This document shows, in pieces, positions 10,925 to 40,369 of a DNA stretch of 64,000 nt. The stretch is from an uncultured Verrucomicrobiae bacterium. Its GTDB lineage: Bacteria > Verrucomicrobiota > Verrucomicrobiia > Chthoniobacterales > UBA10450. Where the stretch lies: positions 1,216,001 to 1,280,000 of the forward strand of contig CAWFGO010000001.1 in assembly GCA_963815455.1 (NCBI GenBank), given 5' to 3'. Position 1 is the stretch's first letter. Each line of letters begins with the position of its first letter. The translations under genes and the position numbers were made by a program. The notes under the pieces are model-generated. The model had not been told where the DNA came from. It ran no database searches and saw nothing but the letters and a program-made list of their open reading frames with translations.

Positions 10925-11062
10925 TGTCATCCTGAGCGCAGCGAAGGACCTCGCGATTAAGCACAGCGCTCGCGATCAAACAAGCGATCATGCTTCACTA
11001 TTGCTCGATCCGTTTCCCCGCCTGTGCGAGATCCCTCGTCGTCTACGCGACTCGGGACGACA
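10925..11062. repeat. Palindromic repeat family A
   Basis: TGTCATCCTGAGCGCAGCGAAGGACCTCGC...GCGAGATCCCTCGTCGTCTACGCGACTCGGGACGACA. Confidence 0.85.
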
Positions 11063-11066
11063 CAAT

Positions 11067-12807
11067 TTACATCTTCTCCGGCACTTTGATCCCGAGAAGA
11101 TCGAGCCCACATTGCAGAACGCGCGCAGTCAACTCGCACACCGCCAGTCGCGAGCTCCGCGCCGGTTCTTCCGATTTCAAAACCGGACACGCTTCGTAAA
11201 ACGCATGGAAACGCGTTAGCCAGCTCGAACAAATAGTTCGCCAGAACGTTCGGCCGAAAATCGTTCAGCACCTGCGGAACCGTTTCGGCGAACTGGCAAA
11301 GGCGCTTTGCCAGATTGATCTCAGCCAGTTCGCCCAGAACAAGTGGCATGTGCTTCCAGCCCATGTCCTCATCGGCAGGATGCCGATGCCACGTCCCGCC
11401 CGCCTTGCGAAAAATCGATCGAATTCGCACATAGGCGTTCTGCAAATAGGGCGCGGTGTTCCCCTGAAACGAAAGCATTTTGTCCCAGGAAAAAACGTAA
11501 TCGGTCATCCGGTATTGCGACAGATCGCCATATTTCACCGCGCCGATCCCAATTCTTTGGGCGATGTCGATCTTCTCCGCCTCGCTTAATTCGGGATTCT
11601 TTTCTTCAACGATCTTACGGGCGCGCTTGCAGGCCTCATCGAGAACGTCGCGCAGCGGCACGTTGTCGCCCGAGCGCGTTTTCATCAACTTGCGGTCTTC
11701 GCCCAGAATGCTGCCGAACGTGATATGGCGAAAATCGGCCGTGTATCCTTCGCGGCGCGCAATCGCGAAGATCTGTTTGAAATGCAGACTCTGCGGCGCG
11801 CCCACCACATACCAGACCGTGTCGGCTTTCAAATCATTGACGCGATAATCGACCGTCGCGATGTCGCTGGTGGCGTAATTGAATCCGCCATCCCGTTTGC
11901 GAATGATGCACGGTTTATCCGCCAGCTCGGGGATATCGGGAAAAAAAACGACGACCGCGTCTTCACTTTCCTCGGCGATTTTGGACTTGAGCAAACGATC
12001 CACGACGCCGGGCAACCGGTCGTTGTAAAAGCTTTCGCCGTTTTGAATGTCATAATGAATATCGAGCAGCTTGTAGGTCCGCTCGAAATCTTTCATGGAG
12101 AGATCGACGCACTGTTTCCAGATCGACAAATTTTCGGCGTCGCCGGCCTGAAGCTTCACCAGTTCCTGCCGGCAGGCTTCGCGCACGGCCGGATCGGTTG
12201 TCGATCTTTCGTTCGTCTCCTTGTAAATGCGGACCAGCTCGGCGATCGGGTCGGGCTCGAGCGCCTTTCGATCCAGCAAATGCTTCCAGCCGTAGATCAC
12301 CATCCCGAACTGAGTTCCCCAGTCGCCGATGTGATTGTCGCGAATCACTTCGTGACCGAGAAACGTCGCGATCCGGGCCAGCGCGTCGCCTAGAACGATG
12401 CTCCGAATATGGCCAATGTGCATCGGCTTGGCCACGTTGGGCGATCCGAAATCGATCACGACTCTTCGGGGCGATGTCGATGCTGCCACGCCGAGGCGAT
12501 CGTCGCCTAAAACGGCGGCGGCTTGTTTCGTAATCGCTTCGGTGCGCAAGGCAAAATTGATGAAACCCGCGCCAGCCACAGTGGGCGTGTCACAAATTTC
12601 GCCAACATCGAAGTGCTCGATAATTTTCTTCGCAATCTCTCTCGGATTTTCGCCGCGTTGTTTGGCCAGCACCATGGCGGCGTTCGTTTGATAATCGCCA
12701 AAGCGCGGGTCGGCCGCCTGCGTGACTTCGCCCGCGGCCGGAGGCAAGCCCGCCCTGGACAGCGCGTCGCTCAATCGCTTGGCAAGAATTGTTTGGAACG
12801 TTTCCAT
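11067..12807 (-). CDS. argS: Arginine--tRNA ligase; one apparent frameshift near 11210
   Basis: [22 protein letters not shown] and KTRSG motifs; removing one base restores the C-terminus [11 protein letters not shown]...[13 protein letters not shown]. Confidence 0.93.
11343..11392. repeat. REP-like palindromic doublet inside argS
   Basis: GTGGCATGTGCTTCCAGCCCATG-TCCT-CATCGGCAGGATGCCGATGCCAC: two internal hairpins with GTGGCAT/ATGCCAC inverted ends. Confidence 0.75.
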
Positions 12808-12858
12808 GAAAATTTAAGGAACTGTAGCCGGTTCGTTGCGCGAAGCGAGAATAGCGCT

Positions 12859-12953
12859 TGTCATCCCGAGCGGAGTCGAGGGATCCCGTCGAGCCGCCTC
12901 TAGATCATGCCGCGGGATTTCTTCGACTCCGCTTCGCTGCGCTCAGAATGTCA
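12859..12953. repeat. Palindromic repeat family A
   Basis: TGTCATCCCGAGCGGAGTCGAGGGATCCC...TTCGACTCCGCTTCGCTGCGCTCAGAATGTCA. Confidence 0.8.
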
Positions 12954-12960
12954 GCAGCAA

Positions 12961-13428
12961 CTACGTTTTCTGCGAGCCCTCGCGGAAGATCGACAGGATT
13001 TCCTCAGACGATTTCGCAGTGGCCAGATTTTCGCGAACGGTGCGGTCGTTCAGAAACTTCGCGATCGAAGCGAGCGTCCGCAGATGCGTTTGAAATTGAT
13101 TTTTCGGGACAATGAAAAGGACGACAAATTTCACCGGCGCATTATCGAGCGCGTCGAACTCGATGCCGGTTGTCGATCTTCCAAATGCCGCGACCACCTC
13201 TTCCAGCCGGTCGGACGAGCAATGGGGGATGGCGATGCCAAAGCCGATCCCGGTGCTCATGGTTTCCTCGCGTTGTTTGAGCGCGGCCAGAATGGAGTCG
13301 CGATCCGGGGCTTTGATTTTGCCAAGATCGACAAGCAAGTCGATCAGCTCCACGATGGCCGGCCAACGCTCGGTTGCCTTCATCTCCGGGATGATTTGCT
13401 CGGCGGAAAGTAGGTTGGCCAACGACAT
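12961..13428 (-). CDS. PTS EIIA (fructose/mannitol/Ntr family) domain protein
   Basis: RE..MSTGIGFGIAIPH phosphorylation-site motif. Confidence 0.9.
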   Translation of the reverse strand: MSLANLLSAEQIIPEMKATERWPAIVELIDLLVDLGKIKAPDRDSILAALKQREETMSTGIGFGIAIPHCSSDRLEEVVAAFGRSTTGIEFDALDNAPVKFVVLFIVPKNQFQTHLRTLASIAKFLNDRTVRENLATAKSSEEILSIFREGSQKT

Positions 13429-13507
13429 GCGAGTTTTCTCGGGCGGGGAGGGCAAGCTTAGCGGGGGCGCTTGGGTTGACAAGCGCGTTTTGGGCGGCTT
13501 AGCGGCA

Positions 13508-14210
13508 TCAGGAATCCTGCATTTTATAGTTCAATCGTCGCGACAGCAGCCAGCGGACGCCGAACATGTCGATGGTGGCGCGCAACGCGCGATTGCCCAG
13601 GCCGTATTTGCTCTGGCCGAAGCGGCGGGCCCGGTGGTTTACCGGAATTTCAACCAGCCGGAAGCCGGCGCCTTTGACCAGCGCGGGGATAAACCGATGC
13701 ATCCCTTTGAACGGCACGAGCGCGTCGATGCATTCGCGTCGCATGGCTTTCAATGTGCAACCCGTATCGCGCACGCCGTCATGGGTGAACCGGCTGCGAA
13801 CGGCATTTGCAATCCGGCTCGTTAGCCGTTTGAGGAGTGTATCCTTGCGATTTTCGCGGTAACCGCAGACGAGATCCGCGCCACGCTGGATTTCGGCGAG
13901 CAACTTCGGAATATCGGCGGGATCGTTCTGCAAATCGCCGTCGATGAGGATTGCGGTCGCGCCACGCGCGGCCTGAAGCCCGGCATAGATCGCCGCGCTT
14001 TGCCCGGCGTTTTTCTCGAACCGAATCACGCGAACATTCGGCGCGGTTTCGATTCTTTCGACAGTGCGATCGGTCGAACCATCATCGACAAAAATAATCT
14101 CGTGATCGAGTCCTACCGAGAGCTGCGCGCAACTCCGATTGCAGGATCGACATGTTCTCTTCCTCATTGAAGAGGGGAACGACCACCGAGATTTCCGGAG
14201 AAGTTGTCAT
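13508..14210 (-). CDS. GT2 polyprenyl-phosphate glycosyltransferase (ArnC-like); frameshift near 14117
   Basis: ISVVVPLFNEEEN in one frame, then FVDDGSTD, DGDLQNDP and HRFIPAL in another. Confidence 0.85.
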
Positions 14211-14215
14211 CGGAG

Positions 14216-15796
14216 TCACAACGGGAGGGTCCGATAACTTCGGCAGAGGAAAACTCGCCACGTCCGGACAACCGTGCCGTAGCGCCGCACCTCGATTGTC
14301 CCAACGGTCTCCACCGATTGAAACCCGGCGCTAATGTTGTGCGGAGACACGGTCTTTTATTCCATCGCGGATGAAAAGCGCGCTGCGCCCGACGAACAGA
14401 TTCACGCCGTTCTCTTCGGTATAGACTTGATCGCGCGGGCGCGTCTCGTCCGGCTTCACTTCTACAAATTCATCGTAGCGCGGCCAGAAGGAAAATTGAT
14501 TAACCATGTCCTGCGATTCGGGGATGTAAACCGGCGGGTGCCCCGGCCCTTCCCGGCGTTTATCGCGCAGATAAAATGAAATCTCCGATGCGCGATCGCG
14601 GGCATCGGCAATCAGAAACAATTTCTCGCCCAGTTTCGTTTCCATTTCGTTGCGCATCTCTTCCAGCGCGCCGGTGGCGGATTTCCAGCCCGCGCATCCG
14701 GTCGCTCGGATCGCTCCGCCACAATTTCAAGCCGGCGCTGCGGACCAGATCGGTATCGAGGGCGAGCATGCTCATGAGAAGGCCAAGCGCCAGCGCGACC
14801 CCGGTGCAAATCCGCAAAGCCGCGCGCTCTTCAACCCGTTCCCGCCAGAAATAAATCGCCAGTAATCCAAAACTCAGCATGGCCAGCGCGTCCCAATTCG
14901 GCGCGGCGGCCTTGTTGATGGAGAGAAGCAAATAAAAAGCGAAGACCGGGAGACCGAACCAGAAAAGAAAGAGCACCTTGAATTGTTGATTCACCCGGCG
15001 CCAGCTCGCGATCACGGCCCAGGCCAGGGCCAGAAAAAGAAGAGGCGAATAAGCGAGAAAATGTTGGCCGATGAATTTGAGCGGCTCGACCAAATGAAAA
15101 CCGAAACCGTGTTCGACGCCGCCGCGAGAACGCAGATGGATAAGAGTGATCCAGGCGCGCTGGTCGTTCCAAACGATCGGCGGGATGGTGCAGACCAGCG
15201 AACAGGCCCAGCAACACATAGAGACCGGGCCGGCGAAATTCGTGGCGCAGCCGCGGCGCCAGCGCGAGCACCAGAACGACGGAAACGAGTTCGAACGCAT
15301 TCGTATATTTGCAGAGGAAACCGAGCCCAATGAGCAAACCCGTTAGCGGCCAAAACCAGGAGAATCGCGGACTTTGCTCCAGCGCGATCCAAAACGCGAA
15401 CATCGCGGCAACCCAAAAGAAGATCGACAACGGATCGATCGTCATCAGGAACGAGCCGATGTTGAAAATCGGGGTGACGTTCAATGCGATCACCGTCCAC
15501 AGCGCGGCGTTCGCGTTGAACATTCGCCGGGCGAGATAAAACAAAAGAAGGCTCGTCCCCGCCGCCAGCACCGGGCTGAAAAACCGCACCCCGAATTCGT
15601 TGGCGCCGAAGAGCGCGGTGCCGGCACGAATGACAAAGGCAACGCCGGGCCCCTTGCTGAAATAGGCCGGCGCGAGCCGCTCCGACCACATCCAGTAATG
15701 GGCCTCGTCGAATTCGAGATCGCTCGTCGGGAGCATCGACAATCGCACCAGGGTCAGCGCCAGAACAAAAAACCAAACCGCGCGGGTCGTGCTCAT
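14216..15796 (-). CDS. GT39/ArnT-like membrane glycosyltransferase; about three frameshifts
   Basis: DEAHYWMWS, YFSKGPG and GFLCKYT motifs; the protein continues across ORFs 14560-15330 and 14331-14657 and a final frame ending RSYRTLPL*. Confidence 0.8.
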
Positions 15797-16444
15797 TGGG
15801 TAGGATCGACAACCAGACTTGAATGGCGCGCGAAAACCTGCGGCATCCATTTTTTCGCAGCCGTTCGCCAAATCCATTCCAGGATTCCGATGATGATCAA
15901 CGCCTCGCCGGTCGCGAGAAAAAAAGTCGCGATCACGTCGCTCGGCCAATGCGCGCCCAGATAGATTCGCGAGTAACCGACAAGCGCGGCCACGATCCAA
16001 TAAAGCCAGCCGCGTCGCCGGTAAAACAACGTGCAGCAGACTGCGATGGCAGTGTTGTTCGCCATGTGTCCCGATGGGAACGACGGCCCGGACCGGTTCC
16101 GATCGGTCGTATCGGAATAACGAATCGTCGGCTTTTTAAAGAGCGTCAAAATTTTCGGACTGGCCTTTTGCAACTCGACCATGCGCACGCTTTCCGCTTG
16201 TTTCGGACGCCGCCGATCTATCGCCGATTTGAGCGTGCCGGTTACCTGCTCGACAATCAGAACGGTGATAAGGATGCAAACCATGCAGGCGCGCGCCTTG
16301 AACCGGCCGAAAACAAGAACAACGAGCACGGCCGACAATGAGCAGCGGTCTCCATATGGCCGCATCGCTCAAGACGGCCATGAACAAATCCAGCGCGGGA
16401 TTCGTCCATTGCTCATTGATAAGATGAAAGAGGGCTTGGTCCAT
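15793..16444 (-). CDS. PAP2-family phosphatase; frameshift near 16335
   Basis: KxxxxxxRP, SFPSGH and SRIYLGAHWPSD motifs. Confidence 0.88.
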
Positions 16445-16505
16445 GGAGTCGCAAAGAGGCTGGGTTTAAGCTTTAATCACCACCTGCCAATAAACAATGC
16501 CGTAA

Positions 16506-16637
16506 AATGACGAAGCACGAATGACGAATGACGAAACAAATCCGAATGAACGAATGACCAAACCGCGATCCGACGCTTTAGCTTTGTCATTTGGATTTCG
16601 TCATTCCTTCGGGCTTAGTCATTTGTCATTCGTCATT
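16506..16637. repeat. Inverted heptamer-repeat element (GAATGAC / GTCATTC), family C
   Basis: Left arm AATGACGAA...GAATGACGAATGAC; right arm GTCATTTG...GTCATTCGTCATT. Confidence 0.75.
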
Positions 16638-17282
16638 CCTTTCATCTTCTTGGCGTCGGCTCTGGCCGAGCCTCCGCCGTCCGCCCAGGAAATCCTCGCC
16701 ACGGTTCGAATGCGTCAGGCTCAACAGCAGATCGATCTGAACGGCCAGTTGCGTGAAAACGATGTCGTCGTCCCTTTCCAGCTCACGCAAACGGGTCCGG
16801 TCATTCGCTATTTGTTCCAAGATCCCAAAGAGGTTTTGCAATTGCGGCTTCAGGAGAACGATTCGCGACTTGAAGTAGTATCGGACTCCGATACGGAAAA
16901 GATCCCCGCGTCAAAGCTCGATGAGAAAATTCGTGGCACCGGCGTTACCTATGGCGACCTCGCGCTCAAGTTTCTTTACTGGCCGGACGGCAAAGTATTG
17001 GGCGATGAAACCGTGCACGCCCGGAGTTGCTGGAAAGTGCAATTAAAATCTCCGTCGCGGGACTCGCAATATTCGAACGTCTTGATCTGGGCGGACAAGG
17101 ACAGCAGCGCACTAATGCGCATGGAAGGCTACGATTGGAACGGCAAAATCGCGAAGCGCTTTGAAGTTGTCTCCGCGCAGAAGATCGACAATCGCTGGTT
17201 CCTAAAGCAAATGCGCGTGGAAGAATTCCGGCCCGGGACGAACAAGGTGCAGGCGCGAACGTATTTGGAGATTAAAAAATAG
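16521..17282 (+). CDS. Outer-membrane lipoprotein-sorting (LolA-like) protein
   Basis: Signal-like N-terminus, then GTGVTYGDL, YSNVLIWAD and GYDWNGKIAK typical of the LolA-like family. Confidence 0.7.
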   Translation: MTNDETNPNERMTKPRSDALALSFGFRHSFGLSHLSFVIPFIFLASALAEPPPSAQEILATVRMRQAQQQIDLNGQLRENDVVVPFQLTQTGPVIRYLFQDPKEVLQLRLQENDSRLEVVSDSDTEKIPASKLDEKIRGTGVTYGDLALKFLYWPDGKVLGDETVHARSCWKVQLKSPSRDSQYSNVLIWADKDSSALMRMEGYDWNGKIAKRFEVVSAQKIDNRWFLKQMRVEEFRPGTNKVQARTYLEIKK

Positions 17283-17389
17283 CGTAAGCATCTCGCCTGG
17301 CCGGGAGGAGCTTCTGTCAGGCCCGAGGCAGGCCAAATGACGCGCACAACCGAACCTCCGCCCCCCGGTGTTGTGCAAATACACGTGCA

Positions 17390-17417
17390 TTTACACGTTT
17401 ATTCATCTAATTATAGT
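17390..17417 (+). promoter_or_regulatory. Candidate sigma70 promoter overlapping the attI-like site
   Basis: TTTACA (17390-17395), 16-nt spacer, TATAGT (17412-17417). Confidence 0.4.
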
Positions 17418-17422
17418 TAGGT
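17401..17422 (+). other. attI-like recombination site at the head of the cassette array
   Basis: ATTCATCTAATTATAG/TTAGGT; core GTTAGGTCT is the reverse complement of AGACCTAAC that ends cassette 1; no attC stem upstream. Confidence 0.65.
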
Positions 17423-17462
17423 CTTAGGAAACGCCGCGTGAAATCGTCGAGGGACAGTCACT

Positions 17463-17768
17463 GTGGGAGATACTCAGTTCCGGTGGAGTGTGCACCGCCA
17501 ACCGACTTGGGCCACATCGCGTCATGAGCAAATCGGCTTACGTGGGTTAGCGATTCTTGTCGAGCCGGTGGAGGCGAGTCGACGGCAATTGCTCCTGGAG
17601 TTCAGCATTGATCGGTCGCTACACGGTGACATGCCACAGCACCAGCGCTTTCGCATTCCGGACCGTCGTTTGGTCGAGTGTATTGAGAAGGCTGTCGGCG
17701 CAGGCTATGATCCTTCGAGACGTGGAAAACCATTTGTTTATGAGGCCGGACCTCCGTACGAGTTCTAG
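17463..17768 (+). CDS. Cassette 1 hypothetical protein
   Basis: 101 aa ORF filling the interval between the attI-like site and attC1; start uncertain. Confidence 0.65.
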   Translation: MGDTQFRWSVHRQPTWATSRHEQIGLRGLAILVEPVEASRRQLLLEFSIDRSLHGDMPQHQRFRIPDRRLVECIEKAVGAGYDPSRRGKPFVYEAGPPYEF

Positions 17769-17773
17769 CGCAG

Positions 17774-17902
17774 ACCTAACCAGACGATGAAGCTAACGGC
17801 CACTGTCCTGCGTTTTGGTGATGCCTTTCTGGCGGTTACTTTACTTTCACTGCGTTGTGGCCGCTACCCCAGTGGCCGTAGCTTATCTTATTCTCGTTAG
17901 AT
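17774..17902 (+). other. attC site 1
   Basis: R'' ACCTAAC, L'' GATGAAGC, L' GCTTATC, R' GTTAGAT. Confidence 0.92.
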
Positions 17903-17903
17903 C

Positions 17904-18290
17904 ATGAGCAAGCGCGCAACAGAAGATGCCATCCGGAAGGACATCGAAGCGCATCGCCAACGGAACGTTATGCTGGTCCAGCACATCACCAAAAGAGGTG
18001 CCGACACCGCGCGGGAGCGTGACATCGATTGTTTCTTTCACACACGCGGCGAGGATGCCGCCATCACACTGTCGGCATTTTTGCAGTCACGTGGGTTTCG
18101 GGACATTTCCATTGTGGACACCGAGGATGGGGGCGATCACCCGTGGACTGTTCAGGCCGTCCTTACCGGCACAGTAGTCGCCTTTACAGCGGCCGATCGC
18201 ACTGAGGAACTGGTTCGTATCGCAGCAGACCATGACGCACTGTTCGATGGTTGGGGAACACTGCTGGACGAAGTGCCACCGACGATCTAA
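17904..18290 (+). CDS. Cassette 2: RraB-like (ribonuclease E inhibitor domain) protein
   Basis: 128 aa; RDIDCFF...LVRIAADHDALFDGWG pattern; stop TAA lies within R'' of attC2. Confidence 0.65.
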   Translation: MSKRATEDAIRKDIEAHRQRNVMLVQHITKRGADTARERDIDCFFHTRGEDAAITLSAFLQSRGFRDISIVDTEDGGDHPWTVQAVLTGTVVAFTAADRTEELVRIAADHDALFDGWGTLLDEVPPTI

Positions 18291-18409
18291 CCAGACGATG
18301 CAGCGAACGGCTTTCCCGGCATGCGTTTACATTTTGCGATGACTAACATACGCTCACTTCAATTCAGCCTCGGTGTCGAAAGCCGTCGCTGATCTTATTC
18401 TCGTTAGGC
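18285..18409 (+). other. attC site 2
   Basis: ATCTAAC CAGAC GATGCAGC...GCTGATC TTATTCTC GTTAGGC. Confidence 0.92.
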
Positions 18410-18649
18410 GAAGAAGCGAATGACCGTATCGTGACTCACGAATGCACACCGCAATCCGCAGCTGCTGGCAAAAGCCAGTACCTGCTCTCTCCAGCTTCGC
18501 GGGTCCGCTGGATCACACCGAAACCACGTAAAGAAGCCGTCAGTCGTTACCGAGACGCTGCTATAGTCGCTCGCCAGAGATTCGCGTATGCGGTTTCTCA
18601 GCGTTGGGATGCAATCGCTCCACTCATATCCTGTTGTGCTTCTGTTCAT
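18404..18649 (-). CDS. Possible inverted small ORF in cassette 3 (81 aa)
   Basis: MNRSTTGY...VIRFFA; its stop coincides with the TTA of the GTTAGGC core. Confidence 0.4.
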   Translation of the reverse strand: MNRSTTGYEWSDCIPTLRNRIRESLASDYSSVSVTTDGFFTWFRCDPADPRSWREQVLAFASSCGLRCAFVSHDTVIRFFA

Positions 18650-18670
18650 ATCTTGTGTAAGCATCTCGGC

Positions 18671-19252
18671 TTGCTTGCGCGTTCGGCTCTCGATTGCAAG
18701 ATCCTTTTTGTTGTTTTTTTCGCGATTTCCGCCACTGCAGCAAACACATTGATAGCGGGCGAGCCTTACACTGTGCCGAGCAGCGCCCTTACGGACGCAG
18801 CTCGGCAAAATCTCGTCGGTGGCTTCACATACCACCTTCCGCCCGGTTGGTCGCAGAAGAATCTTCCCGGTGCACAGTTCAAGGCAGCATTCGGACGCGA
18901 GGAAGACGGCAATCCCGGAAACATTAGTTTTCAGGTTGCCGCTTTCAGCGGCAGCCTTGGCGAGTTTCAGGCCACGATGTTAAAAGAGATGCCGTCGGTT
19001 TTCTCCAAGATGGGCATTTCGGATTCCCGAGTCGTAAATCAATCGGCATTCGAAACATCCTCAAAGCTGGTTGGCTTGCAGGCAGTCGTCGAGGCTGAGC
19101 GCCTCGACGGGAAGACTGCGCGACAGCTCCTCTATTTCTTCGAGCGGAAGGACGGTCAAAAGATTCTCGTAACTTGCTCGGTCGTGGACGAGGGCACGCG
19201 ATACGATGCGATCTTTGATGCGATCATGAAGACATTCGAGGTCACAAAGTGA
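18671..19252 (+). CDS. Cassette 3: secreted PsbP/DcrB-like protein
   Basis: Hydrophobic signal (KILFVVFFAISATAA), FTYHLPPGW, and C-terminal FDAIMKTFEV; TTG start inferred. Confidence 0.6.
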   Translation: MLARSALDCKILFVVFFAISATAANTLIAGEPYTVPSSALTDAARQNLVGGFTYHLPPGWSQKNLPGAQFKAAFGREEDGNPGNISFQVAAFSGSLGEFQATMLKEMPSVFSKMGISDSRVVNQSAFETSSKLVGLQAVVEAERLDGKTARQLLYFFERKDGQKILVTCSVVDEGTRYDAIFDAIMKTFEVTK

Positions 19253-19265
19253 TTGCCACCCATTC

Positions 19266-19388
19266 GCCTAACCAGACGATGGAGCTAACGGCCACCCGGC
19301 GTATGTTTACCTTTCTCGTGACTTTAACACTATTGCTTCGATCATCGCTCGCTCTCGGTGGCCGTAGCTCATCTTGTTCTCGTTAGAT
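19266..19388 (+). other. attC site 3
   Basis: GCCTAAC CAGAC GATGGAGC...GCTCATC TTGTTCTC GTTAGAT. Confidence 0.92.
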
Positions 19389-19410
19389 GTAATGCAAACT
19401 GTTCGGCGGT

Positions 19411-19794
19411 ATGGAATCCTTCCTTCACTTCGTCATGACATTTGCCGGAGCACTCGCTGCCGCAATCGGGATTTTGCTCGGTGCGATTCTGATTTTTCTC
19501 CTCGTCGTTTGGATCAGCGATAAGATGCCGAGCGCGAACAAGCGTATCCGCAATCAAGCGCTCGGCGGCATTGGCTTGGTGCTATTCGGCTTTCTCATGC
19601 TTTGGAACGCGCGATGGGCACTGTTGCACCATACCATCTTGTTTCGACGCTACCCCTCGTGGGGAAGGTCTGCATGGATGAATCCGTGGCAGGCGATTGC
19701 CGTCGCTGCCATTTGCTTCATCCTCGGAGCGGTCCTCGTGATAGATGCCGTGCGCAAGAAAAGAGAACCAGATGCAAATTTCTCGGCAAATTGA
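19411..19794 (+). CDS. Cassette 4: small membrane protein (about 3 TM segments)
   Basis: 127 aa with three hydrophobic stretches, between attC3 and attC4. Confidence 0.7.
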   Translation: MESFLHFVMTFAGALAAAIGILLGAILIFLLVVWISDKMPSANKRIRNQALGGIGLVLFGFLMLWNARWALLHHTILFRRYPSWGRSAWMNPWQAIAVAAICFILGAVLVIDAVRKKREPDANFSAN

Positions 19795-19803
19795 ACGTCT
19801 CGC

Positions 19804-19927
19804 ATCTAACCAATCGCTCGAGCCAACCGCTGGCCGTCGCGATGTCCACATTTGATTTCATGAAACAGTTCTCGATGTTTGCCATGCTCGCTCTCGCCAG
19901 CGGTGCCTGAGCTCATTCTCGTTAGAC
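19804..19927 (+). other. attC site 4 (divergent variant)
   Basis: ATCTAAC CAATC GCTCGAGC CAACCGCTGGC...GCCAGCGGTG CCTGAGC TCATTCTC GTTAGAC. Confidence 0.88.
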
Positions 19928-19997
19928 CTGTTGGATTGCTCTGCGCGATGAGAAGGCGAAGTGAAAAAGCGCGAATCTTGCGCGAGCGAGCGAAGCC

Positions 19998-20741
19998 ATG
20001 AACGACGTTCCCGATGAAAAGCCGGTGGCAGCTACCTCAGGCGTGGCCCGCCAGCGGCGCGGTCTTGATTGGTCCCAGGCGCTAGTTGAGCTCGCTACGG
20101 TCGTCATCGGCATCTTAATCGCATTAGCGGCGAACAACTGGGCGGAGGGGCGACATAACGCTGCGCTGGAAGCTCGTTATCTGGAGCGACTCCTCGCGGA
20201 CAGCACGGAGAATCTTACCATGCTTCAGGAGAGGATTGATCTGCTGACGCGCCGGACCGACGAACTGACTCGCTTGAGCGGCTGGCTGACAGGCGGAACA
20301 GAGCGTCCCATAGATGCGGAAATTTCGGACGTTCTCTGCCGCTGGTTTATCCAACCAGCCTTACGCCTGCGCCGCGAGACCTACGCCGAACTGGTGAGCA
20401 CGGGTAACCTCTCTCTGCTGCGCGACGTGCCACTGCGCGCACTGCTTGAGCAAGCGGAAACCAGACACGAAGAATTGCTCAGGCTCGATCGCTTTACCGA
20501 TATTCTTCAGCGAGAGACGGAGCCATTGAATCGATATCGCCAGTGGAAAATCGATCCGGGTGCTGGCCCGAAGGTCGGCTGCCGTTTTGATCTCAATGCT
20601 ATGCGCTCTGACCCGGTCATCCCCTCGATCCTCGCCCAGATCTGTCGTGACGAGACTATAAACCGCTCGTTCTGTGAGCAGGAATTGGTCGCAGTCCGCG
20701 CCGTGCGCGACCGTATAACAAGAATGCAATCGCCGCGATGA
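19998..20741 (+). CDS. Cassette 5: single-TM helical protein (DUF6090-like)
   Basis: ELATVVIGILIALAANNW and TYAELVSTGNLSLL patterns. Confidence 0.7.
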   Translation: MNDVPDEKPVAATSGVARQRRGLDWSQALVELATVVIGILIALAANNWAEGRHNAALEARYLERLLADSTENLTMLQERIDLLTRRTDELTRLSGWLTGGTERPIDAEISDVLCRWFIQPALRLRRETYAELVSTGNLSLLRDVPLRALLEQAETRHEELLRLDRFTDILQRETEPLNRYRQWKIDPGAGPKVGCRFDLNAMRSDPVIPSILAQICRDETINRSFCEQELVAVRAVRDRITRMQSPR

Positions 20742-20803
20742 GACTGCTTGCCGAAGTGACAATGGCAGAGCGGGGCGGCCACATTCTGACCAAACACGAA
20801 AAG

Positions 20804-20926
20804 GCCTAACCAGACGGTGGAGCGAACAGCGACCGGCCTTTTCTCCACGCGCAGAGTAGATACAATGTCTTCCATGTTCTCCACCCTCGCTCTCGGTCGC
20901 CGCCGCTCACCTTGGTCTCGTTAGAT
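20804..20926 (+). other. attC site 5
   Basis: GCCTAAC CAGAC GGTGGAGC...GCTCACC TTGGTCTC GTTAGAT. Confidence 0.92.
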
Positions 20927-21383
20927 GAATCGGTTGCGTCTTGTCGCGTTGATAATTCTGTGCGTCACGGCCTCGTTCCGTGCGCAGGGCACTGGCTACT
21001 ACACTGCGGGGAGCCACATGACTAGCGCTGTCGACGCCAAGGGTGTCCGGCACGATGGGCACTCCTATAAAGGCGCTCCGCCTTGGCTCGCAGATCGCAC
21101 CTCAGGACCGTCACCAGATTACCCCATTCGCGAGCGCGCATTGCACCATCAAGGCCGAGTCATCGTTCGCCTCACCCTCGATCTTAAGACTGGCCGTGTT
21201 ATCAAGACCTCTTTGCTGAAGTCCTCGGGCTACCCCGAACTTGATCGCTGCGCGATTGCCGCTTTTAGCCGCTGGACGTGGCGTCCGGGCCGTTGGAAGG
21301 AGATAGACATGCCTACGAGATTTGAGATGGCCGATCCGTCTCAGCCGCCAGTCCCAGGGGCGACCCGGTTGCCGCACTCATGA
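20925..21383 (+). CDS. Cassette 6: secreted TonB C-terminal domain protein
   Basis: Signal peptide, PDYPIRERALHHQGRVIV, KSSGYPELDRCA and RWTWRPG; ATG overlaps R' of attC5. Confidence 0.8.
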   Translation: MNRLRLVALIILCVTASFRAQGTGYYTAGSHMTSAVDAKGVRHDGHSYKGAPPWLADRTSGPSPDYPIRERALHHQGRVIVRLTLDLKTGRVIKTSLLKSSGYPELDRCAIAAFSRWTWRPGRWKEIDMPTRFEMADPSQPPVPGATRLPHS

Positions 21384-21393
21384 TTCATCTAAC
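21382..21393 (+). other. Truncated terminal attC (R'' box only)
   Basis: GATTCATCTAAC is the exact reverse complement of GTTAGATGAATC that starts cassette 6; no L boxes or R' follow. Confidence 0.7.
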
Positions 21394-21565
21394 CATACAT
21401 CTGAGGTGGTCCGTCAAACATTTGGATTGAAGTTATTGGTAGGATTTTCAGGCGGCTTTAGGGAGTTGTTGATCGGCCATGAATAACTGCTGGATGACCA
21501 ATAATGCGATGCATTCGTTTTGATGAAGTGTTCCCCTAATTGTTCGCGAGCGAGAATCTCTTTTC

Positions 21566-21602
21566 GCGAGATCCTTCGCCGTCTACGCGGCTCAGGATGA
21601 CA
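21566..21602. repeat. Palindromic repeat family A, right arm
   Basis: CGCGAGATCCTTCGCCGTCTACGCGGCTCAGGATGACA. Confidence 0.7.
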
Positions 21603-21613
21603 AGGCCACGCTA

Positions 21614-22375
21614 TTAATGCTGCGCAGCTTTGACAATTTGCGCGAAGCTGCGCGGGTCGAGGCTGGCGCCGCCGACCAGGGCGCCGTCGATATCCGGTTG
21701 CGACATGAGCTCGCGCGCGTTTTCCGGTTTCACACTGCCGCCATATTGAATGCGGACGCGGTCGGCCGTCGTCTGATCGGAGAGTTCGAGAAGCGTGTGC
21801 CGAATAAAAGCGTGCGCCTCCTGCGCTTGCGCGGGAGTGGCGTTGCGGCCAGTGCCTATGGCCCAGACTGGTTCGTAGGCCACGATTGTTTCTTGTAACT
21901 CTTTGGCATCGAGACCGGCCAGGCTCCCGCGTAATTGGATCGACAATATCTTTTCCACGTTGCCGTGATCGCGTTGATCGAGCGTTTCGCCGACGCAAAC
22001 AATCGGACGCAGACTTGCTTCGTGCGCGGCGCGCACTTTGCGATTTACAATTTCATCGGTTTCGCCAAACAAGGCGCGCCGTTCGCTGTGGCCGAGCACG
22101 ACGTAGCGCACGAATAAATCGCGCAACATCGCCGACGAGATCTCGCCCGTGAACGCGCCGTTGCGCTCCCAATGCATGTTTTGCGCGCCGACCTTGATGT
22201 TCTGCGCGTCGCCCAGGGCTTCGTTCACTTTTGCAATCGCGGTGAACGGCGGAATGATCACGATTTCGGCATCCGCCGCGTCGCCGATTTCGAGTAGAAA
22301 GGTTTGGACGAACCGCGCAGCCTCGGCCTGCGTCATGTTCATCTTCCAATTCGCGGCAATAATTTTCTTACGCAT
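21614..22375 (-). CDS. tpiA: Triosephosphate isomerase
   Basis: ANWKMN, GHSERR, AYEPVWAIGTG, YGGSV and LVGGASL motifs. Confidence 0.97.
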   Translation of the reverse strand: MRKKIIAANWKMNMTQAEAARFVQTFLLEIGDAADAEIVIIPPFTAIAKVNEALGDAQNIKVGAQNMHWERNGAFTGEISSAMLRDLFVRYVVLGHSERRALFGETDEIVNRKVRAAHEASLRPIVCVGETLDQRDHGNVEKILSIQLRGSLAGLDAKELQETIVAYEPVWAIGTGRNATPAQAQEAHAFIRHTLLELSDQTTADRVRIQYGGSVKPENARELMSQPDIDGALVGGASLDPRSFAQIVKAAQH

Positions 22376-22388
22376 AATGAGCCGACGC

Positions 22389-22555
22389 GCGAGATCCCTC
22401 GCTACGCTCGGGATGACGGGAAGGGCTGGCGACGATTTTCTTTCTCATATCACGTGATCGTCAGCCCGAGCCCCGAACGCTTTCGGGGTTGAGGGATCCC
22501 GTGGCAAAAGGTACCGGTAACGCATCGGGATCCTTCGACTTCGCTCAGGATGACG
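22389..22555. repeat. Palindromic repeat family A: one right arm plus one full copy
   Basis: GCGAGATCCCTCGCTACGCTCGGGATGACG (22389-22418) and CGTCAGCCCGAGC...GCTCAGGATGACG (22460-22555). Confidence 0.8.
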
Positions 22556-22580
22556 GGGAAAGCGGGCGCGATTTTCTTTC

Positions 22581-23790
22581 TCATTTGTCAGTCAACGCGG
22601 CGACGCCCGGCAGTTCCTTGCCCTCGATTAATTCCAGCGATGCGCCGCCGCCGGTTGATATGAACGTCATTTTATCCGCGAGGCCGGCCTGTTTCACCGC
22701 GGTCACGGAATCGCCGCCGCCGATGATCGTGGTGGCGCCCGATTGGGCGAGGGCTTCGGCGATGGCAATTGTTCCTTCGGCGAACTCCGGGATCTCGAAT
22801 ACACCCAGCGGCCCGTTCCACAAAATCGTTTCGGCCTTGGCAATCTCCTCCTGGTAAAGCGCGATCGTGGCCGCGCCGATATCGACCGCGTGCCACCCAT
22901 CGCGAATGCCGTGCTCCTGGGAAAGCCGGCTCGTGTTCTCCATCGAAGCGCCGGCCTGGACTGCCTCCGCCTCCACAACATCGACCGGCAACAAAAAATT
23001 CACGCCGCGCTTTTTGGCAAGATCGACAATCTCATGCGCGAGATTGACCTTGTCGGACTCGACCCGGCTGGCGCCAATCGGGATTCCCTGCGCTTTGAAA
23101 AAAGTGTTAGCCATGGCGCCGCCGATCAGAATCGTGTCGGCCTTTTCCATGAGCGCTTTGAGCACGCCGATTTTATCGGAAACTTTCGAGCCGCCCATGA
23201 TCACGAGAAACGGCTTGGCCGGTTTGGCCAGTTCTTCGCGCAAATACTTCAGCTCCTTCTCCATCAACAGACCCATCGCCGATTGTTTCACGAACTTGGT
23301 GATTCCAGCAGTCGAGGCATGGGCGCGATGGGCCGCGCCGAAAGCATCGTTAACATAAAGGTCGCCGAGCTTGGCCAGCGCTTCGGCAAATTTCGGATCG
23401 TTCGCTTCTTCCTCGGGTTGGAACCGGACGTTTTCGAGCAACGCGACGTCCCCGTCGTGCATGGAATCGATGATGGTTTTCGGCACATTGCCGATCGTGT
23501 CGTGACTGAAAATGACCGGATGATGGATGAGCGAATGCAAATGATCGCCCACTGGCCGCAGTGAATATTTTTCCACCGGTTTTCCCTTGGGCCGGCCGAA
23601 GTGGGCCATCAAAATCGTCTTCGCCTTATGCTCGCGCAGATAATTGATGGTGGGAAGGCTCTCGCGAATCCGGGTGTCATCGGTGATACGAAATTTCCCG
23701 CCATGGGTATCGGTCGGCACATTAAAATCGACCCGGACGAGGACGCGCTTCCCCCGGACGTCAAGATCGCGAACGGTGAGCTTAGCTCAT
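22581..23790 (-). CDS. pgk: Phosphoglycerate kinase; one extra base directly after the start codon
   Basis: VLVRVDFNVP, HFGRP, LLENVRF, GGGDS and ISTGGGASLE; the start reads ATG-A-GCT AAG CTC. Confidence 0.95.
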
Positions 23791-23791
23791 A

Positions 23792-24220
23792 TTACTCGTG
23801 CTCGTAATCGTAATCGTGCTCGTAATCGATCCCTGCTTGTTCTCCTTCCCGCACTCGTCCAGCGCGATCGGAAAATCGGCGCAACAATCCGACAAGCATC
23901 TCAACGATGCGAACCAGCTGCTCCTTCCGTTCGTTGGCAATCTTTTGCTTGGCGAGTTTTCGCGCCACCAAGACATCGAGACGCGCCGCGCATTCGACTG
24001 CCGAGCCACGCGCGATTTCGAAGAACCGGGAACGATCGGCCGCAGAAAATTTGCCGTTCCCCTCGGCGATATTCAGCGGCACGCTGGTCGAGGCCCGGTC
24101 GAGCTGGTCTTTCGCGGCCGCCTTCTCGGTGATTGTTTTCAAAAAGTCACCCACCCATCCACAGAAGTCGATCGCTTGGACGTAAACGTCCAGTTTCTCG
24201 TGATCAAAGTGGATTTTCAT
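23792..24220 (-). CDS. Four-helix-bundle protein (23S rRNA intervening-sequence protein family)
   Basis: EKLDVY, DQLDRASTSVPLNIAEG and FFEIARGSAVEC motifs. Confidence 0.9.
   Translation of the reverse strand: MKIHFDHEKLDVYVQAIDFCGWVGDFLKTITEKAAAKDQLDRASTSVPLNIAEGNGKFSAADRSRFFEIARGSAVECAARLDVLVARKLAKQKIANERKEQLVRIVEMLVGLLRRFSDRAGRVREGEQAGIDYEHDYDYEHE
23795..23828. repeat. Hexamer tandem repeat (TAATCG/TGCTCG), one arm of an inverted pair
   Basis: CTCGTGCTCGTAATCGTAATCGTGCTCGTAATCG; encodes the DYEHDYDYEHE tail of the four-helix-bundle protein. Confidence 0.85.
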
Positions 24221-24234
24221 GGGCTAATGAAAAC

Positions 24235-24267
24235 CGATTACGATTACGAGCACGAGCACGATTACGA
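24235..24267. repeat. Hexamer tandem repeat (CGATTA/CGAGCA), other arm of the inverted pair
   Basis: CGATTACGATTACGAGCACGAGCACGATTACGA. Confidence 0.85.
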
Positions 24268-24268
24268 A

Positions 24269-25271
24269 CTATTTGCCGAGCATTTCCAGCATTTCCACGC
24301 AGCGATTGCTGTAGCCCCATTCGTTGTCGTACCACCCCACGATCTTGGCGAACCGGTTCCCAAGTGTGATGGTCAGTTTGCTGTCGAAAATGCACGAGTG
24401 CGGGTTGCCTACGATGTCCTGCGAAACCAGCGGCTCGTCGCTGAATTCGAGCACGCCTTTGTAACTCTTGTCCGCGGCGGCCTCTTTGAATGCGGCGTTA
24501 ATCGCATCCACCGAGGCATCCTTCTCCAGGACCACGGTGAAATCTGTGACCGAACCGTCCGGCGTGGGGACGCGGAAGGCGCCGCCGTTCAGTTTTCCCT
24601 TTAGAGCGGGAATCACTTCACCGATCGCTTTGGCCGCGCCGGTGCTGGATGGAATGATGCTGACTCGCCGCCGCCCGGGCCCGTCGCAAATCCTCGTGGG
24701 GCAGATCGAGAATCCGTTGATCGTTGGTATAACTGTGGATCGTGCTCATGAACCCGTGGGCGATACCGAACTTGTCATTCATCACTTTGGCCAACGGCGC
24801 GAGGCAATTCGTCGTGCAACTGGCGTTGGAAACGATCGTGTGCTTGGCCGGATCGTAGACGTCGTCATTAATCCCGACGCAAATCGTGGCGTCGGGGTTT
24901 TTCGCCGGCGCGGAGATCAGGACCCGTTTCGCGCCGCCTTTGCTGATATGCAGCTCGGCTTTGTCGCGACTGGTGAAAAATCCGGTCGATTCGAGGACAA
25001 CATCGACATCGAGCTTTTTCCACGGGAGATTTCCCGGGTCGCGCTCTTTGAAGATTCTGATCTTATGGCCGCGCACGATGATGTTTTCATCGTCGTAACC
25101 GATTTCACCGTCGAATTTGCCGTGGACCGAGTCCCACTTGAGCAAGTGGGCCAGCGTATGCGTGTCGGTTAGATCGTTAATGCTCCGGACACGCTCGACT
25201 TGTTTCTGTGACATGGCGCGCAGGACATTGCGCCCGATGCGGCCGAAGCCGTTGATTGCGAAGTTTGCCAT
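24269..25271 (-). CDS. gap: Type I glyceraldehyde-3-phosphate dehydrogenase; frameshift near 24665
   Basis: [30 protein letters not shown] and WYDNEWGYS split over two ORFs. Confidence 0.95.
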
Positions 25272-38210: not shown

Positions 38211-39554
38211 ATGATTTCGATAACCGCCCGCCGCCCGTGGTACCGGCCGTCGCTCACGACCCAGATCATGATCGGCCTGGTCGTGGGCGGGCTGATCGGC
38301 TGGGTGCGACCCGACTGGGGTAACGCCGTCTTTTTTCTGCGCGATATTTTTCTCAACCTGATCAAGTCGATCATCGCTCCTCTGGTTTTCTCGACCATCG
38401 TGATCGGAATCGCCGGAGCCGGCGCGCTCAAGAAGGTGGGGCGCATGGGCGTGAAAGCGATTGTCTACTTCGAGACCGCTACGACCGCCGCGCTGGCCAT
38501 CGGGTTGGTCGTTGTCAATTTCATGAAGCCGGGCGTGGGCGTCACGCTCGTGGCCGGCAATACCGATATCGTTAAAGCAATCGGGCAAAGTCATCCCAAA
38601 ACGCTGATCGAAACGCTGGTGCACGCGTTTCCGTCCAGCGTGATTGAAGCGATGGTGCGCGGCGACGTGCTGCAAATCGTCGCGTTCAGTGTGCTCTTCG
38701 CCCTTGCGGTGTCAGCGATCGGCGAAAAAGGGAAACCGATCGTGCGCGCGATGGAGAGCCTGTCGCAGGTGATGTTCAAATTCACCAATTACGTCATGAT
38801 GTTCGCACCCATCGGAGTCGGCGCGGCCATGGCTCACACTGTCGGCACTCAGGGCTTGGGGGTTCTTTTCTATCTCGGCAAACTGATCCTTTCGCTTTAT
38901 CTCGCGTTGATCATCTTCATCGTCCTGGTCTTTGGGCTCGTCATTTTCATCGCCCGCGTCCCGTTGCGGCAATTTTTCCGCGCGGTGCGCGAGCCAGCCG
39001 CGCTCGCCTTCGCCACTACCAGCAGCGAATCGGCGCTCCCCAAGGCGATGGAACAAATGGAGCGGTTTGGCGTGCCGCGCCACATCGTCGGCTTCGTGAT
39101 GCCGACCGGTTATTCATTCAACCTCGACGGATCGACATTGTATCTGGCGATGGCCTCGGTGTTCGTCGCTCAAGCAGCCGAAACGACAATGGGCTGGCAC
39201 ATGGGGATCGGTCAGCAGATCACCATGATGCTGACGTTGATGCTCACTTCCAAAGGCGTGGCCGCGGTTCCGCGCGCGTCCCTGGTGATCTTGCTCGCAA
39301 CCTTGAACACGTTCCTTCCCGCCGGACTCGGCCCGATTGGCGTCGCGGTAATATTCGGCGTGGATGAACTAATGGACATGGGGCGCACGTGCGTGAACCT
39401 GGTTGGTAATTGTCTGGCCACCGTTGTCGTCGCCCGCTGGGAAGGCGAATTTGACGACGACCGTGCCCGTGTCTTCGGCACGCGCAAGGAAGTCGAACTC
39501 GATTTGAAATCCGGTGATGTCGCGTTCGCCGACGCGATGCGGCAGGGGGACTGA
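38211..39554 (+). CDS. Dicarboxylate/amino acid:cation symporter (GltP/DctA family)
   Basis: FATTSSESALP, GYSFNLDG, SKGVAAVP and DMGRTCVN motifs. Confidence 0.92.
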   Translation: MISITARRPWYRPSLTTQIMIGLVVGGLIGWVRPDWGNAVFFLRDIFLNLIKSIIAPLVFSTIVIGIAGAGALKKVGRMGVKAIVYFETATTAALAIGLVVVNFMKPGVGVTLVAGNTDIVKAIGQSHPKTLIETLVHAFPSSVIEAMVRGDVLQIVAFSVLFALAVSAIGEKGKPIVRAMESLSQVMFKFTNYVMMFAPIGVGAAMAHTVGTQGLGVLFYLGKLILSLYLALIIFIVLVFGLVIFIARVPLRQFFRAVREPAALAFATTSSESALPKAMEQMERFGVPRHIVGFVMPTGYSFNLDGSTLYLAMASVFVAQAAETTMGWHMGIGQQITMMLTLMLTSKGVAAVPRASLVILLATLNTFLPAGLGPIGVAVIFGVDELMDMGRTCVNLVGNCLATVVVARWEGEFDDDRARVFGTRKEVELDLKSGDVAFADAMRQGD

Positions 39555-39567
39555 TTAGTCGAATAAA

Positions 39568-39589
39568 TTTCGCCTACTTCTAGTTAGAC
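39568..39589 (+). other. Second attI-like site
   Basis: TTTCGCCTACTTCTAG/TTAGAC aligns without gaps to ATTCATCTAATTATAG/TTAGGT at 17401. Confidence 0.55.
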
Positions 39590-40369
39590 CTAAACGGGCG
39601 CGCCATCTATTTTCAAAATCTATCAAGCTGATCAAACAGATTTTTCAGCACATTCGACGTATTTCGAATGCGCGTCGCTTTGGGGTTCCTTTTGTCCGGC
39701 GCGCTTCATTCAGCCTTCCAACGGCGATCCGACTCCGAGGTCAGTCCGTGCTCCTTTCTTCCCCCGACGAGGGCGGCGCTGCGATTGACTTCTTAACATG
39801 CTTTATCGAGGACGAATACGGATTGAGCGCGGTCGATTTCCCCGTGCATACCGTTGCGGACATTGGGGCGAATATTGGCCTCTTCTCAATGGCGGCGCGA
39901 GGGTATTTCCCCACCGCAAGAATCCATTCCTACGAACCAAATCCCCGGGTGCTCGAGCATTCATCAAAGAATGCCGCCGCTGCTGAGTTCACCCTATTCG
40001 CCGAGGCTGTTGGCGCGAGGGCTGGGTATGTCTCGATCGACGAGTCGGGCGGCTCCAACCAAGCCAGGACAATCGCCGCTTCGAAGTCTGGCCATCGGAT
40101 TCCACAAGTCTCGCTCTCTACCGTCGTCGAACGGCTTGGCGGGCGAATTGATTTCGCCAAGATTGATTCCGAAGGAGCTGAGTGGGAGCTATTGGCCGAC
40201 CCTACTGCTTGGCCCGCTATTAAGAACATCCGCATGGAATATCATCTTTGGGGTCGGCGTGTCTTTACGGATGTCGAGCAATCTCTTGGCAGAATTGGGT
40301 TCCAGATTCATCACCATAGTTCAGCTGGCGAATGGGGCACCGTTTGGGCTCGCAACACAAAGGCCTAAC
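39584..40369 (+). mobile_element. Solitary gene cassette with R''-only attC
   Basis: Core GTTAGACCT (39583) and inverse core AGGCCTAAC (40361-40369), the latter holding the ORF stop; same end pair as cassette 5. Confidence 0.55.
39748..40368 (+). CDS. FkbM-family SAM methyltransferase (frame open upstream; may start at CTG 39628)
   Basis: DIGANIG, SYEPNP and KIDSEGAE motifs. Confidence 0.88.
   Translation: MLLSSPDEGGAAIDFLTCFIEDEYGLSAVDFPVHTVADIGANIGLFSMAARGYFPTARIHSYEPNPRVLEHSSKNAAAAEFTLFAEAVGARAGYVSIDESGGSNQARTIAASKSGHRIPQVSLSTVVERLGGRIDFAKIDSEGAEWELLADPTAWPAIKNIRMEYHLWGRRVFTDVEQSLGRIGFQIHHHSSAGEWGTVWARNTKA

Follow-up and report, generated by a model that had tools for sequence, protein, structure and literature searches.

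A six-cassette array without an integrase gene at an attI-like site of an apparently undescribed, orfX-associated class in a Verrucomicrobiae genome

How does an array of gene cassettes come to lie at a chromosomal site that has no integrase gene? The question is raised by a window of 64,000 nucleotides (the whole stretch of DNA analysed) from an uncultured soil bacterium of the Verrucomicrobiae, order Chthoniobacterales (contig CAWFGO010000001.1, positions 1,216,001 to 1,280,000), in which six integron cassettes stand between a LolA-like gene and tpiA. An earlier note, made from the letters of the window, had read the locus as a docking platform with an attI-like head, served by an integrase in trans, and not just as a decayed fragment. 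We consider it probable that the locus is a truncated, integrase-less (non-autonomous) integron platform of a type named here after the small gene orfX, served by the integron integrase IntI in trans. The docking platform of the note is strengthened by an orfX-type attI class, while the contrast with a decayed fragment holds only in part, since the platform itself is truncated and has lost orfX. Activity of this copy in trans is inferred. Both the class of attI normally paired with a small orphan gene and the truncation of the platform were overlooked by the note.

The structure of the array was confirmed as the note had described it. Folding, recombination boxes and a family alignment agree on five attC palindromes of 123-129 bp between six short genes; in the folded bottom strands (-21.4 to -24.4 kcal/mol) the R boxes and the L boxes are paired, and the five sites form one family with a mean column identity of 72%. 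A scan for attC sites by generic structural criteria gave too much noise and overlooked one site of the window, and a family motif and a hidden Markov model built from the sites of this genome were used instead. The footprint of circle integration, i.e., the complementarity of each cassette start to its own R'' box, has exactly the lengths given in the note (Table 1). Beyond the invariant GTTAG, own-cassette pairing gives 30 matching positions against a permutation mean of 15.8, a value reached by one of 720 permutations, which is the observed order and beats all 719 others. All six open reading frames (ORFs) of the cassettes are open (101, 128, 273, 127, 247 and 152 aa). The absence of a tyrosine recombinase from the window also held: none of the 8 PF00589 or 11 TIGR02249 matches of the genome falls there, and a permissive tblastn search for an integrase gave nothing below E 0.2 in the window. 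No intI remnant was found at the array, and a search of Rfam gave no match.

With five folded attC sites and no intI within 4-10 kb, the array is by definition an attC cluster lacking intI (CALIN); as for a complete integron, the attI core is present, while an adjacent intI and the distal repeat are missing. Its mode of working would be that of a sedentary integron which lacks intI. PMC4889954 reports intI in the genomes of half of the CALINs and no intI pseudogene close by for 95% of them; the CALIN definition given there ignores attI, and IntegronFinder recognises attI of classes 1-3 only. Mobilisation of CALINs in trans is stated in PMC12444791, and PMC8618304 lists intI loss, rearrangement and secondary-site insertion as their origins.

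Further evidence for our reading lies at the head of the array. The inverted L box, the short spacer and the G|TT crossover of an attI core are all present there. Matrices were built from 24 intI-adjacent and 28 orfX-adjacent sites of other genomes and scored on all 108,537 GTT sites of the host genome (G000). The window head ranks 21 with the intI core matrix and 5 with the orfX core matrix, so the attI-like site of the earlier note scores as an attI against sites of other genomes. The sequence upstream of the core tells the two types apart: with the orfX-type matrices the head ranks 2 both over 60 nt and over the upstream part only, whereas with the intI-type matrices it ranks 946 and 34,923, respectively. 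Distal core-like direct repeats upstream of the attI core are named DR1 and DR2 in class 1 integrons. A distal core-like repeat occurs at 24/24 intI-adjacent sites, at 0/29 orfX-adjacent sites and not in the window head. TGCAC-type motifs show the opposite distribution, with 0/24 intI-adjacent sites against 28/29 orfX-adjacent sites (mean 2.3, shuffled 0.15), and a metagenome set independent of the motif definition has the distal repeat at 0/59 and TGCAC-type motifs at 57/59 sites. The window head has two such motifs, which in this class lie at -65 to -14.

For about 92 bp, from about 17323 on, the head can be aligned with platforms of the orfX type from unrelated loci and other genomes, and weak traces extend further back as far as the stop codon of the lolA-like gene. 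Closest to hand is the head beside the single orfX of the host genome, in an intI-less array at C1:294 kb (host positions are given as contig and coordinate), which is identical in 40/44 nt. The head motif was found in 5 of 354 other genomes of the family, with no intI in the regions around it, and a small divergent ORF starts ~105 bp upstream in 4/7 head sites, both sites of the host genome counted. The exact 31-nt head pattern had no match in metagenome contigs, and tblastn with OrfX gave no match at the array head. The head appears to be a genuine attI of a distinct, apparently undescribed class. The same alignments bear on another origin, in which a cassette entered a chance GWT site (attG) in the lolA/tpiA spacer, others accreted behind it, and the head is merely host DNA. 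IntI does insert cassettes at many genomic GWT sites, according to bioRxiv 10.1101/2022.09.11.507474. The ~92 bp shared with platforms elsewhere, and spacers of 20-127 bp in relatives without an attI-like site, leave this origin hardly any probability.

A full platform measures ~305 bp and comprises orfX (66-69 aa), which sits where intI would be, and a divergent attI ~105 bp upstream of its start codon. The searches returned 71 close homologs of orfX (from Spartobacteria and Ca. Udaeobacter where a source was stated) and 164 cluster representatives, with matches in 58/355 genomes of the family (~16%; named members Chthoniobacterales, Ca. Udaeobacter) and in 9/401 of the phylum. The offset of the crossover was counted in 30 of 94 orfX matches: GTTA lies on the opposite strand at +104 to +115 of orfX in 29 of these, and G216 has GTTAT at ~+100. 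In metagenomes, among the best 80 of 202 orfX loci, most of them on short contigs, 76 had enough upstream DNA, and GTTRR occurs at +102 to +114 in 59 of the 76 (background 7.8%). Where at least 1 kb upstream was available, attC sites lie on the divergent strand in 31/34 orfX loci vs 1/34 on the orfX strand. The circle footprint of the first cassette holds at 59/60 positions in 20 genome loci and at 95/99 positions in 33 unique metagenome cassettes, and 0 of 10,000 permutations reach either value. The 29 orfX loci represent 24 flank contexts; five locus pairs share the left flank (one over only 85 bp), and the first cassette is common to none of them. As judged from these flanks, cassette turnover occurs at orthologous orfX sites.

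No intI-like match was found in 40 GTDB orfX loci, which overlap the 30-locus set and cover 467 kb (flanks up to 8 kb, 18 loci with more than 5 kb on both sides), nor in the best 80 of the 202 metagenome loci; conversely, orfX was not seen in any of 43 intI loci. Since orfX stands in the place of intI at such heads, it is probable that these arrays take up genes by means of an integrase encoded elsewhere in the genome. The association extends to eight loci of two other families, where no intI-like match was found. In six of the eight, a GTT stands divergently at +99 to +238, and its footprint to the start of an attC-like sequence measures 7-9 nt; one intI-adjacent site in an other-family genome, a single example, shares its lineage-specific core with the orfX sites there. 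An intI match is present in 46 of 65 genomes (63 with orfX, two with the head only), in 27/32 of the high-quality ones and in 7/7 outside the family, which fits a supply in trans with little enrichment.

Some orfX loci have unusual structures. Tandem orfX-attI units, each with its own cassettes, occur three times within 7 kb in locus L141 and twice each in L143 and L154. In L157 and L158 (G288 and G349), an insert of ~250-260 bp behind codon 40 interrupts orfX, and arrays still stand behind the gene (10 attC in L158).

The earlier note had also considered a genome with no intI anywhere. The host genome (3.6 Mb in 7 contigs, 90% complete) was searched with IntI profiles and encodes two full-length integrases outside the window, IntI-A at C1:1718441 and IntI-B at C1:1495265 (TIGR02249 456 and 454 bits, cut-off 265), which retain the catalytic motifs; the nearest intact intI is 258 kb from the array. 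One further copy is frameshifted and two are partial. The frameshift may be an assembly error, because housekeeping genes of the window are also split (10957-25271, e.g. the gap gene at 24269-25271; probably long-read indels). The two-arm motif gave 66 matches to the same attC family genome-wide, at least one of them spurious, in about a dozen clusters. In the intI-B array, at C1:1485.9 kb, an attC is followed by a homolog of the whole of cassette 1 (83% amino acid identity, first 13 nt identical); the crossover at 17416 is therefore fixed independently. Among 14 attI-like sites examined in the host genome, four lie beside intI, one beside orfX, and nine, including the window head, are bare.

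The arrangement of the other host sites varies. The intI-A integron has the usual divergent layout, and three integrons (L020 at C1:1495 kb, L021 at C3:785 kb and L022 at C2:708 kb) have attI and cassettes downstream of the 3' end of intI on the same strand. At the bare intI-type sites C3:607150, C3:579908, C3:85925 and position 39583 of the window, the resemblance to intI-adjacent attI seems to set in at the distal GAT/GTT repeat. A cut by IntI at this repeat may release attI and cassettes as a circle, which IntI would then re-insert elsewhere; C1:196702 and C2:421869, which retain a longer upstream stretch, are at odds with this idea.

Comparison of the locus across relatives bears on the ordinary route to a CALIN, in which a complete intI integron was inserted and intI later deleted. 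In 16/24 loci of the family, tpiA lies 20-127 bp downstream of the lolA-like gene (14/21 without the unpublished genomes G015, G008 and G003), and other neighbours are found in 8/24; in G001, of the same genus, the spacer is ~59 bp. No intI, orfX or attC was found in any of the 24 lolA-like loci of relatives within 1.5-kb flanks, and no attI-like site in their lolA-like/tpiA spacers. As the two genes abut in 16 of the 24, no intI was deleted at this place, and the empty site shows that the array was inserted within this lineage and does not go back to an ancestral integron at the locus. Relatives have neither an array nor intI at this position, contrary to the simple deletion allowed for in the earlier note. 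Deletion has a precedent in the same genome: the head of the intI-less array at C2:421869 combines ~44 bp matching the start of intI-A with an attI that is 97% identical to that of intI-B, and another four bare sites are of intI-adjacent types. The upstream part of the window head is unlike intI-type sites and has no distal repeat, its class was not seen beside intI in the 40 GTDB loci, the 80 metagenome loci (mostly short) or the eight loci of other families, and no intI remnant accompanies it. This rival is largely refuted, and we regard it as very improbable. In L050, a locus of another family, a tyrosine recombinase (30% identity) lies near the lolA-like gene, with no attC.

What OrfX does is the second question. 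The gene is under purifying selection: among 30 coding sequences, one from the unpublished G216, pN (nonsynonymous differences) is below pS (synonymous differences) in 435/435 pairs, and the median dN/dS is 0.17 in 168 unsaturated pairs. The family is basic, with a median isoelectric point of 10.6. The model of the monomer (predicted local distance difference test, pLDDT, 88) has three strands, a short strand and a C-terminal helix. The two-copy model scores 0.67 against 0.02 for the best of three controls, with 100% of contacts agreeing between runs and pLDDT of at least 83; the mark for this score is reached by 20/30 solved pairs and 1/23 single chains and is only roughly valid for the alignment used here. 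The modelling supports a symmetric homodimer formed by antiparallel pairing of strand 1 and by helix contacts. Because such a basic two-fold dimer would stand beside palindromic repeats, DNA binding by OrfX is suggested.

The OrfX query had no match in Pfam or NCBIfam, no useful match in PHROG or PADLOC, no sequence match in PDB, and no match in the plasmids or phages searched. There was no convincing fused form among five longer matches, no Pfam family is common to more than two of 63 OrfX members, and the ESM Atlas holds one unnamed cluster at 0.82-0.85. Fold searches with a weak (pLDDT 64) and a good (pLDDT 88) model gave no Z of 5 or above and no E below 0.001; the best Z was 4.4, the N-terminal domain of 2ra8 reached Z 3.8 (root-mean-square deviation 2.3 over 50 aligned residues) and Pur-alpha Z 2.4, none of them significant. 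No link of OrfX to recombination was found by fold or family match. The fold is reminiscent of three-strand-plus-helix nucleic-acid-binding domains (Arm-type, AP2, WGR, PUR, PC4), none of which gave a significant match. No member of the PC4 family PF02229 turned up in 121 genomes of the phylum, and the modelled dimer, pairing through its first strand, does not suit PC4. A conserved cassette promoter (Pc) inside orfX was considered and rejected: TATAAT is not conserved, Tyr8 being encoded by TAT in 15 sequences and by TAC in 15.

A fragment of a platform, namely an orfX-type attI that lost its orfX, lies between two genes adjacent in relatives, and all six of its cassettes bear the circle footprint. 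We propose that its attI core is the one used by the IntI of the host lineage, and that an IntI encoded elsewhere inserted the cassettes one by one at G|TT. If their order reflects insertion at attI, cassette 6 would be the oldest, and its 99% identity to outside copies would make the whole array recent. The most speculative step is that an OrfX dimer might bind the TGCAC-type repeats, which stand in the place of the distal IntI-binding repeat. OrfX may then act as an accessory or regulatory factor, and the intact orfX at C1:294285 could supply it in trans. The cassettes, the attI class, the empty site of relatives, the intact intI genes elsewhere and the turnover at orthologous orfX sites are established by the data; we infer that catalysis occurs in trans at the window copy, that this copy is recent and, for OrfX, any role at all.

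OrfX could also act outside recombination, regulating its own promoter or the transcription of the cassettes, or it could simply be the gene whose promoter contained an ancestral attG hotspot that became an attI. This is compatible with the trans-served platform, and we give it slightly less than an even chance. Small basic divergent genes are often regulators, heads persist without orfX and orfX without heads, and neither fold nor family ties the protein to recombination. On the other side, the link between orfX and the site spans three families at low sequence identity, with the cores following the lineage, and a new repeat has taken the place of the distal core repeat almost without exception. 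The wider hypothesis, that a second, non-autonomous kind of integron exists in Verrucomicrobiota, in which OrfX, as a dedicated small dimeric DNA-binding protein, replaces intI, binds repeats that replace the accessory sites of IntI, and licenses or controls capture by an integrase encoded elsewhere, goes further, and we think it rather unlikely as it stands.

Several observations weigh against the platform served in trans. The footprints are indirect evidence for recombination catalysed by IntI; the distal repeat and the TGCAC-type motifs were both defined after the alignments had been viewed, and the compared loci are related, not independent. The window copy has no orfX, and two relatives carry the head without it, G325 doing so behind the same gene where G322 has head and orfX; as heads persist without orfX, the gene is not needed to keep a site. 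The eight other bare attI-like sites of the host genome, five of them matching intI-adjacent types, mean that loss of a partner gene is common in it. Among the 76 metagenome orfX loci, 17 have no site at the expected offset (one near miss; several near-identical copies). Genomes with orfX are barely richer in intI than the family (27/32 vs 69/98, the latter at a stricter threshold and with the unpublished G217 in the tally), and some well-assembled ones show no intI. No boundary motif is shared, by eye, beyond the orfX stop codon, where conservation ends. As to reads at strain level, among the runs listed, three had small word shares (0.05-0.06) and none was RNA. Metagenome contigs at 85% likeness did not span the array, and the attC-attC joints found there, most likely from other organisms, were left unused. 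The site-less metagenome loci include a group of L192-L195, L197, L200, L209 and others.

The tail of the array records later damage. After the R'' of cassette 6 follow ~107 bp of an insertion sequence (IS) of the IS110 family, the last 8 nt of an attC and then host DNA. A full 1.7-kb copy of the element (transposase PF01548/PF02371) interrupts an attC of another host array, array A, and alignment with it identifies the remnant. An IS110-family element later destroyed the sixth attC. Copies of cassette 6 with ~99% identity stand on contigs of three soil metagenomes, their matches ending at 21398; these runs hold the cassette, not this strain. The tail brings in a further explanation, in which the array was built on a complete orfX platform here or elsewhere, and orfX was then lost or the block moved, with no further uptake. 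The missing orfX and the destroyed last attC would suit such a frozen array, as would the absence of strain-level variation in metagenome contigs, and the remnant could have mediated a rearrangement; Cury et al. tie IS to CALIN formation (PMC4889954). With the attI core and five attC intact, all six ORFs open and cassette 6 nearly identical to copies in three metagenomes, we judge it improbable.

Two distinct IS110-family elements (1.7 and 1.5 kb) lie inside the attC left arms of several arrays (L019:1040-2551, L020:3073-4437), the 1.7-kb one with a long non-coding region upstream of its transposase. A second bare attI-like site of the window (39545-40390, crossover 39583), of a short type like the intI-adjacent site in G188, stands just after a transporter-like gene. 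Its one cassette encodes an FkbM methyltransferase (PF05050), and the attC of this cassette is interrupted behind R'' by an end of an IS110-family element; the same ending occurs in the host genome at C1:196702.

The features of the locus are collected in Table 1. Both flanking genes are those named in the earlier note. PADLOC gave no match for any of the six cassette proteins, and two of the six have no match in Pfam or NCBIfam, the protein of cassette 3 among them. The match of cassette 5 to PF19578 (E 2e-4) is below the cut-off, and ~87% copies of cassette 4 are present in two soil metagenomes. Short dispersed repeats and hairpins occur at 16505-16638, 21562-21604 and 22402-22568.

Table 1. 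Features of the array and its flanks (positions in the window)
Feature	Position	Strand	Remarks
LolA-like gene, left host flank	16521..17282	+	LolA_like PF17131, E 9.6e-20
Possible decayed orfX 5' end (weak)	17283..17322	-	4/9 alignments to orfX-type heads start at 17281-17305, 5/9 at 17323-17332
orfX-type attI (putative)	17323..17416	+	TGCAC-type repeats 17373-17377 and 17385-17389; L-box-like ATCTAAT 17405-17411; 4-nt spacer; crossover G|TT 17416/17417
Sigma-70-like match (possible cassette promoter)	17390..17417	+	overlaps crossover; 10/12 consensus; 2 seen vs 2.8 expected in shuffles, not significant
Cassette 1	17417..17896	+	101-aa protein without family match (17463-17768); attC 17774-17902 (129 nt); footprint 9 nt
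Cassette 2	17897..18403	+	RraB/DUF695-like (17904-18290), PF06877 E 2e-12; attC 18285-18409 (125 nt); footprint 8 nt
Cassette 3	18404..19382	+	ORF 18431-19252 (true start uncertain); attC 19266-19388 (123 nt); footprint 10 nt
Cassette 4	19383..19921	+	small hydrophobic protein (19411-19794), weak DUF2613 match; attC 19804-19927 (124 nt); footprint 8 nt
Cassette 5	19922..20920	+	247-aa protein (19998-20741), DUF6090-like N-terminus; attC 20804-20926 (123 nt); footprint 8 of 9 nt
Cassette 6	20921..21398	+	TonB C-terminal domain protein (20925-21383), PF03544 E 1.4e-13; attC start only (R'' 21387-21393); footprint 12 nt
IS110-family remnant, internally deleted, attC-targeting	21399..21505		~107 bp matching both ends of 1.7-kb element at C1:1708.9-1710.6 kb
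Residual sixth attC	21506..21513	+	last 8 nt, rest deleted; aligned with interrupted attC of array A
Dispersed host intergenic repeat	21562..21604		dozens of blastn matches on five contigs
tpiA, right host flank	21614..22375	-	TIM PF00121, E 1.8e-98

Set beside known systems, the locus resembles a sedentary chromosomal integron in its attC family and attI core, in cassettes common to the intI arrays of the host, and in a divergent partner gene of the platform with its start codon ~95-115 bp from the crossover; it differs in that no intI stands at the site, the partner is a 66-aa orphan and the distal repeat, present at every intI-adjacent site compared, is missing. Like single attC sites lacking integron-integrases (SALINs) and attG insertions, its cassettes stand outside a complete integron, where an IntI from elsewhere would have put them. 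An attG has only the GWT consensus and is structurally distinct from attI according to bioRxiv 10.1101/2022.09.11.507474, whereas at the window site an L box is present and ~92 bp of platform sequence are conserved. Unlike other CALINs, the array has what appears to be a true attI, whose class goes together with a conserved gene of its own, and its origin would lie outside the three routes listed in PMC8618304. The tail remnant comes from an element in an attC left arm, like the attC-targeting IS110-family elements (IS1111-attC group) cited in PMC11187229; unlike the IS1111 type, the full copy has its long non-coding region upstream of the transposase, which is the IS110 type according to the same paper. 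An attI class with its own non-integrase gene was not found in the literature searched, which included passages of PMC4889954, bioRxiv 10.1101/2022.09.11.507474, bioRxiv 10.1101/2022.02.06.479319, PMC11187229, PMC12444791 and PMC8618304, most subscription papers and supplements lying outside the search.

The usual interpretation of CALINs is that they result from decay or from insertion off target; in the present case one class of them has a conserved attI and a conserved gene, and orfX-type arrays occur in many chromosomal contexts, with cassette turnover and no integrase alongside. The orfX platform provides a test case for attI sites as dedicated platforms used in trans and for accessory sites of IntI that may be replaceable by another protein, and orfX can serve as a marker gene for hidden attI sites. 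If the wider hypothesis were true, OrfX would act as an accessory factor dedicated to the attI sites of integrons, of a kind not found in the literature searched, and one integrase would serve a genome-wide network of docking sites.

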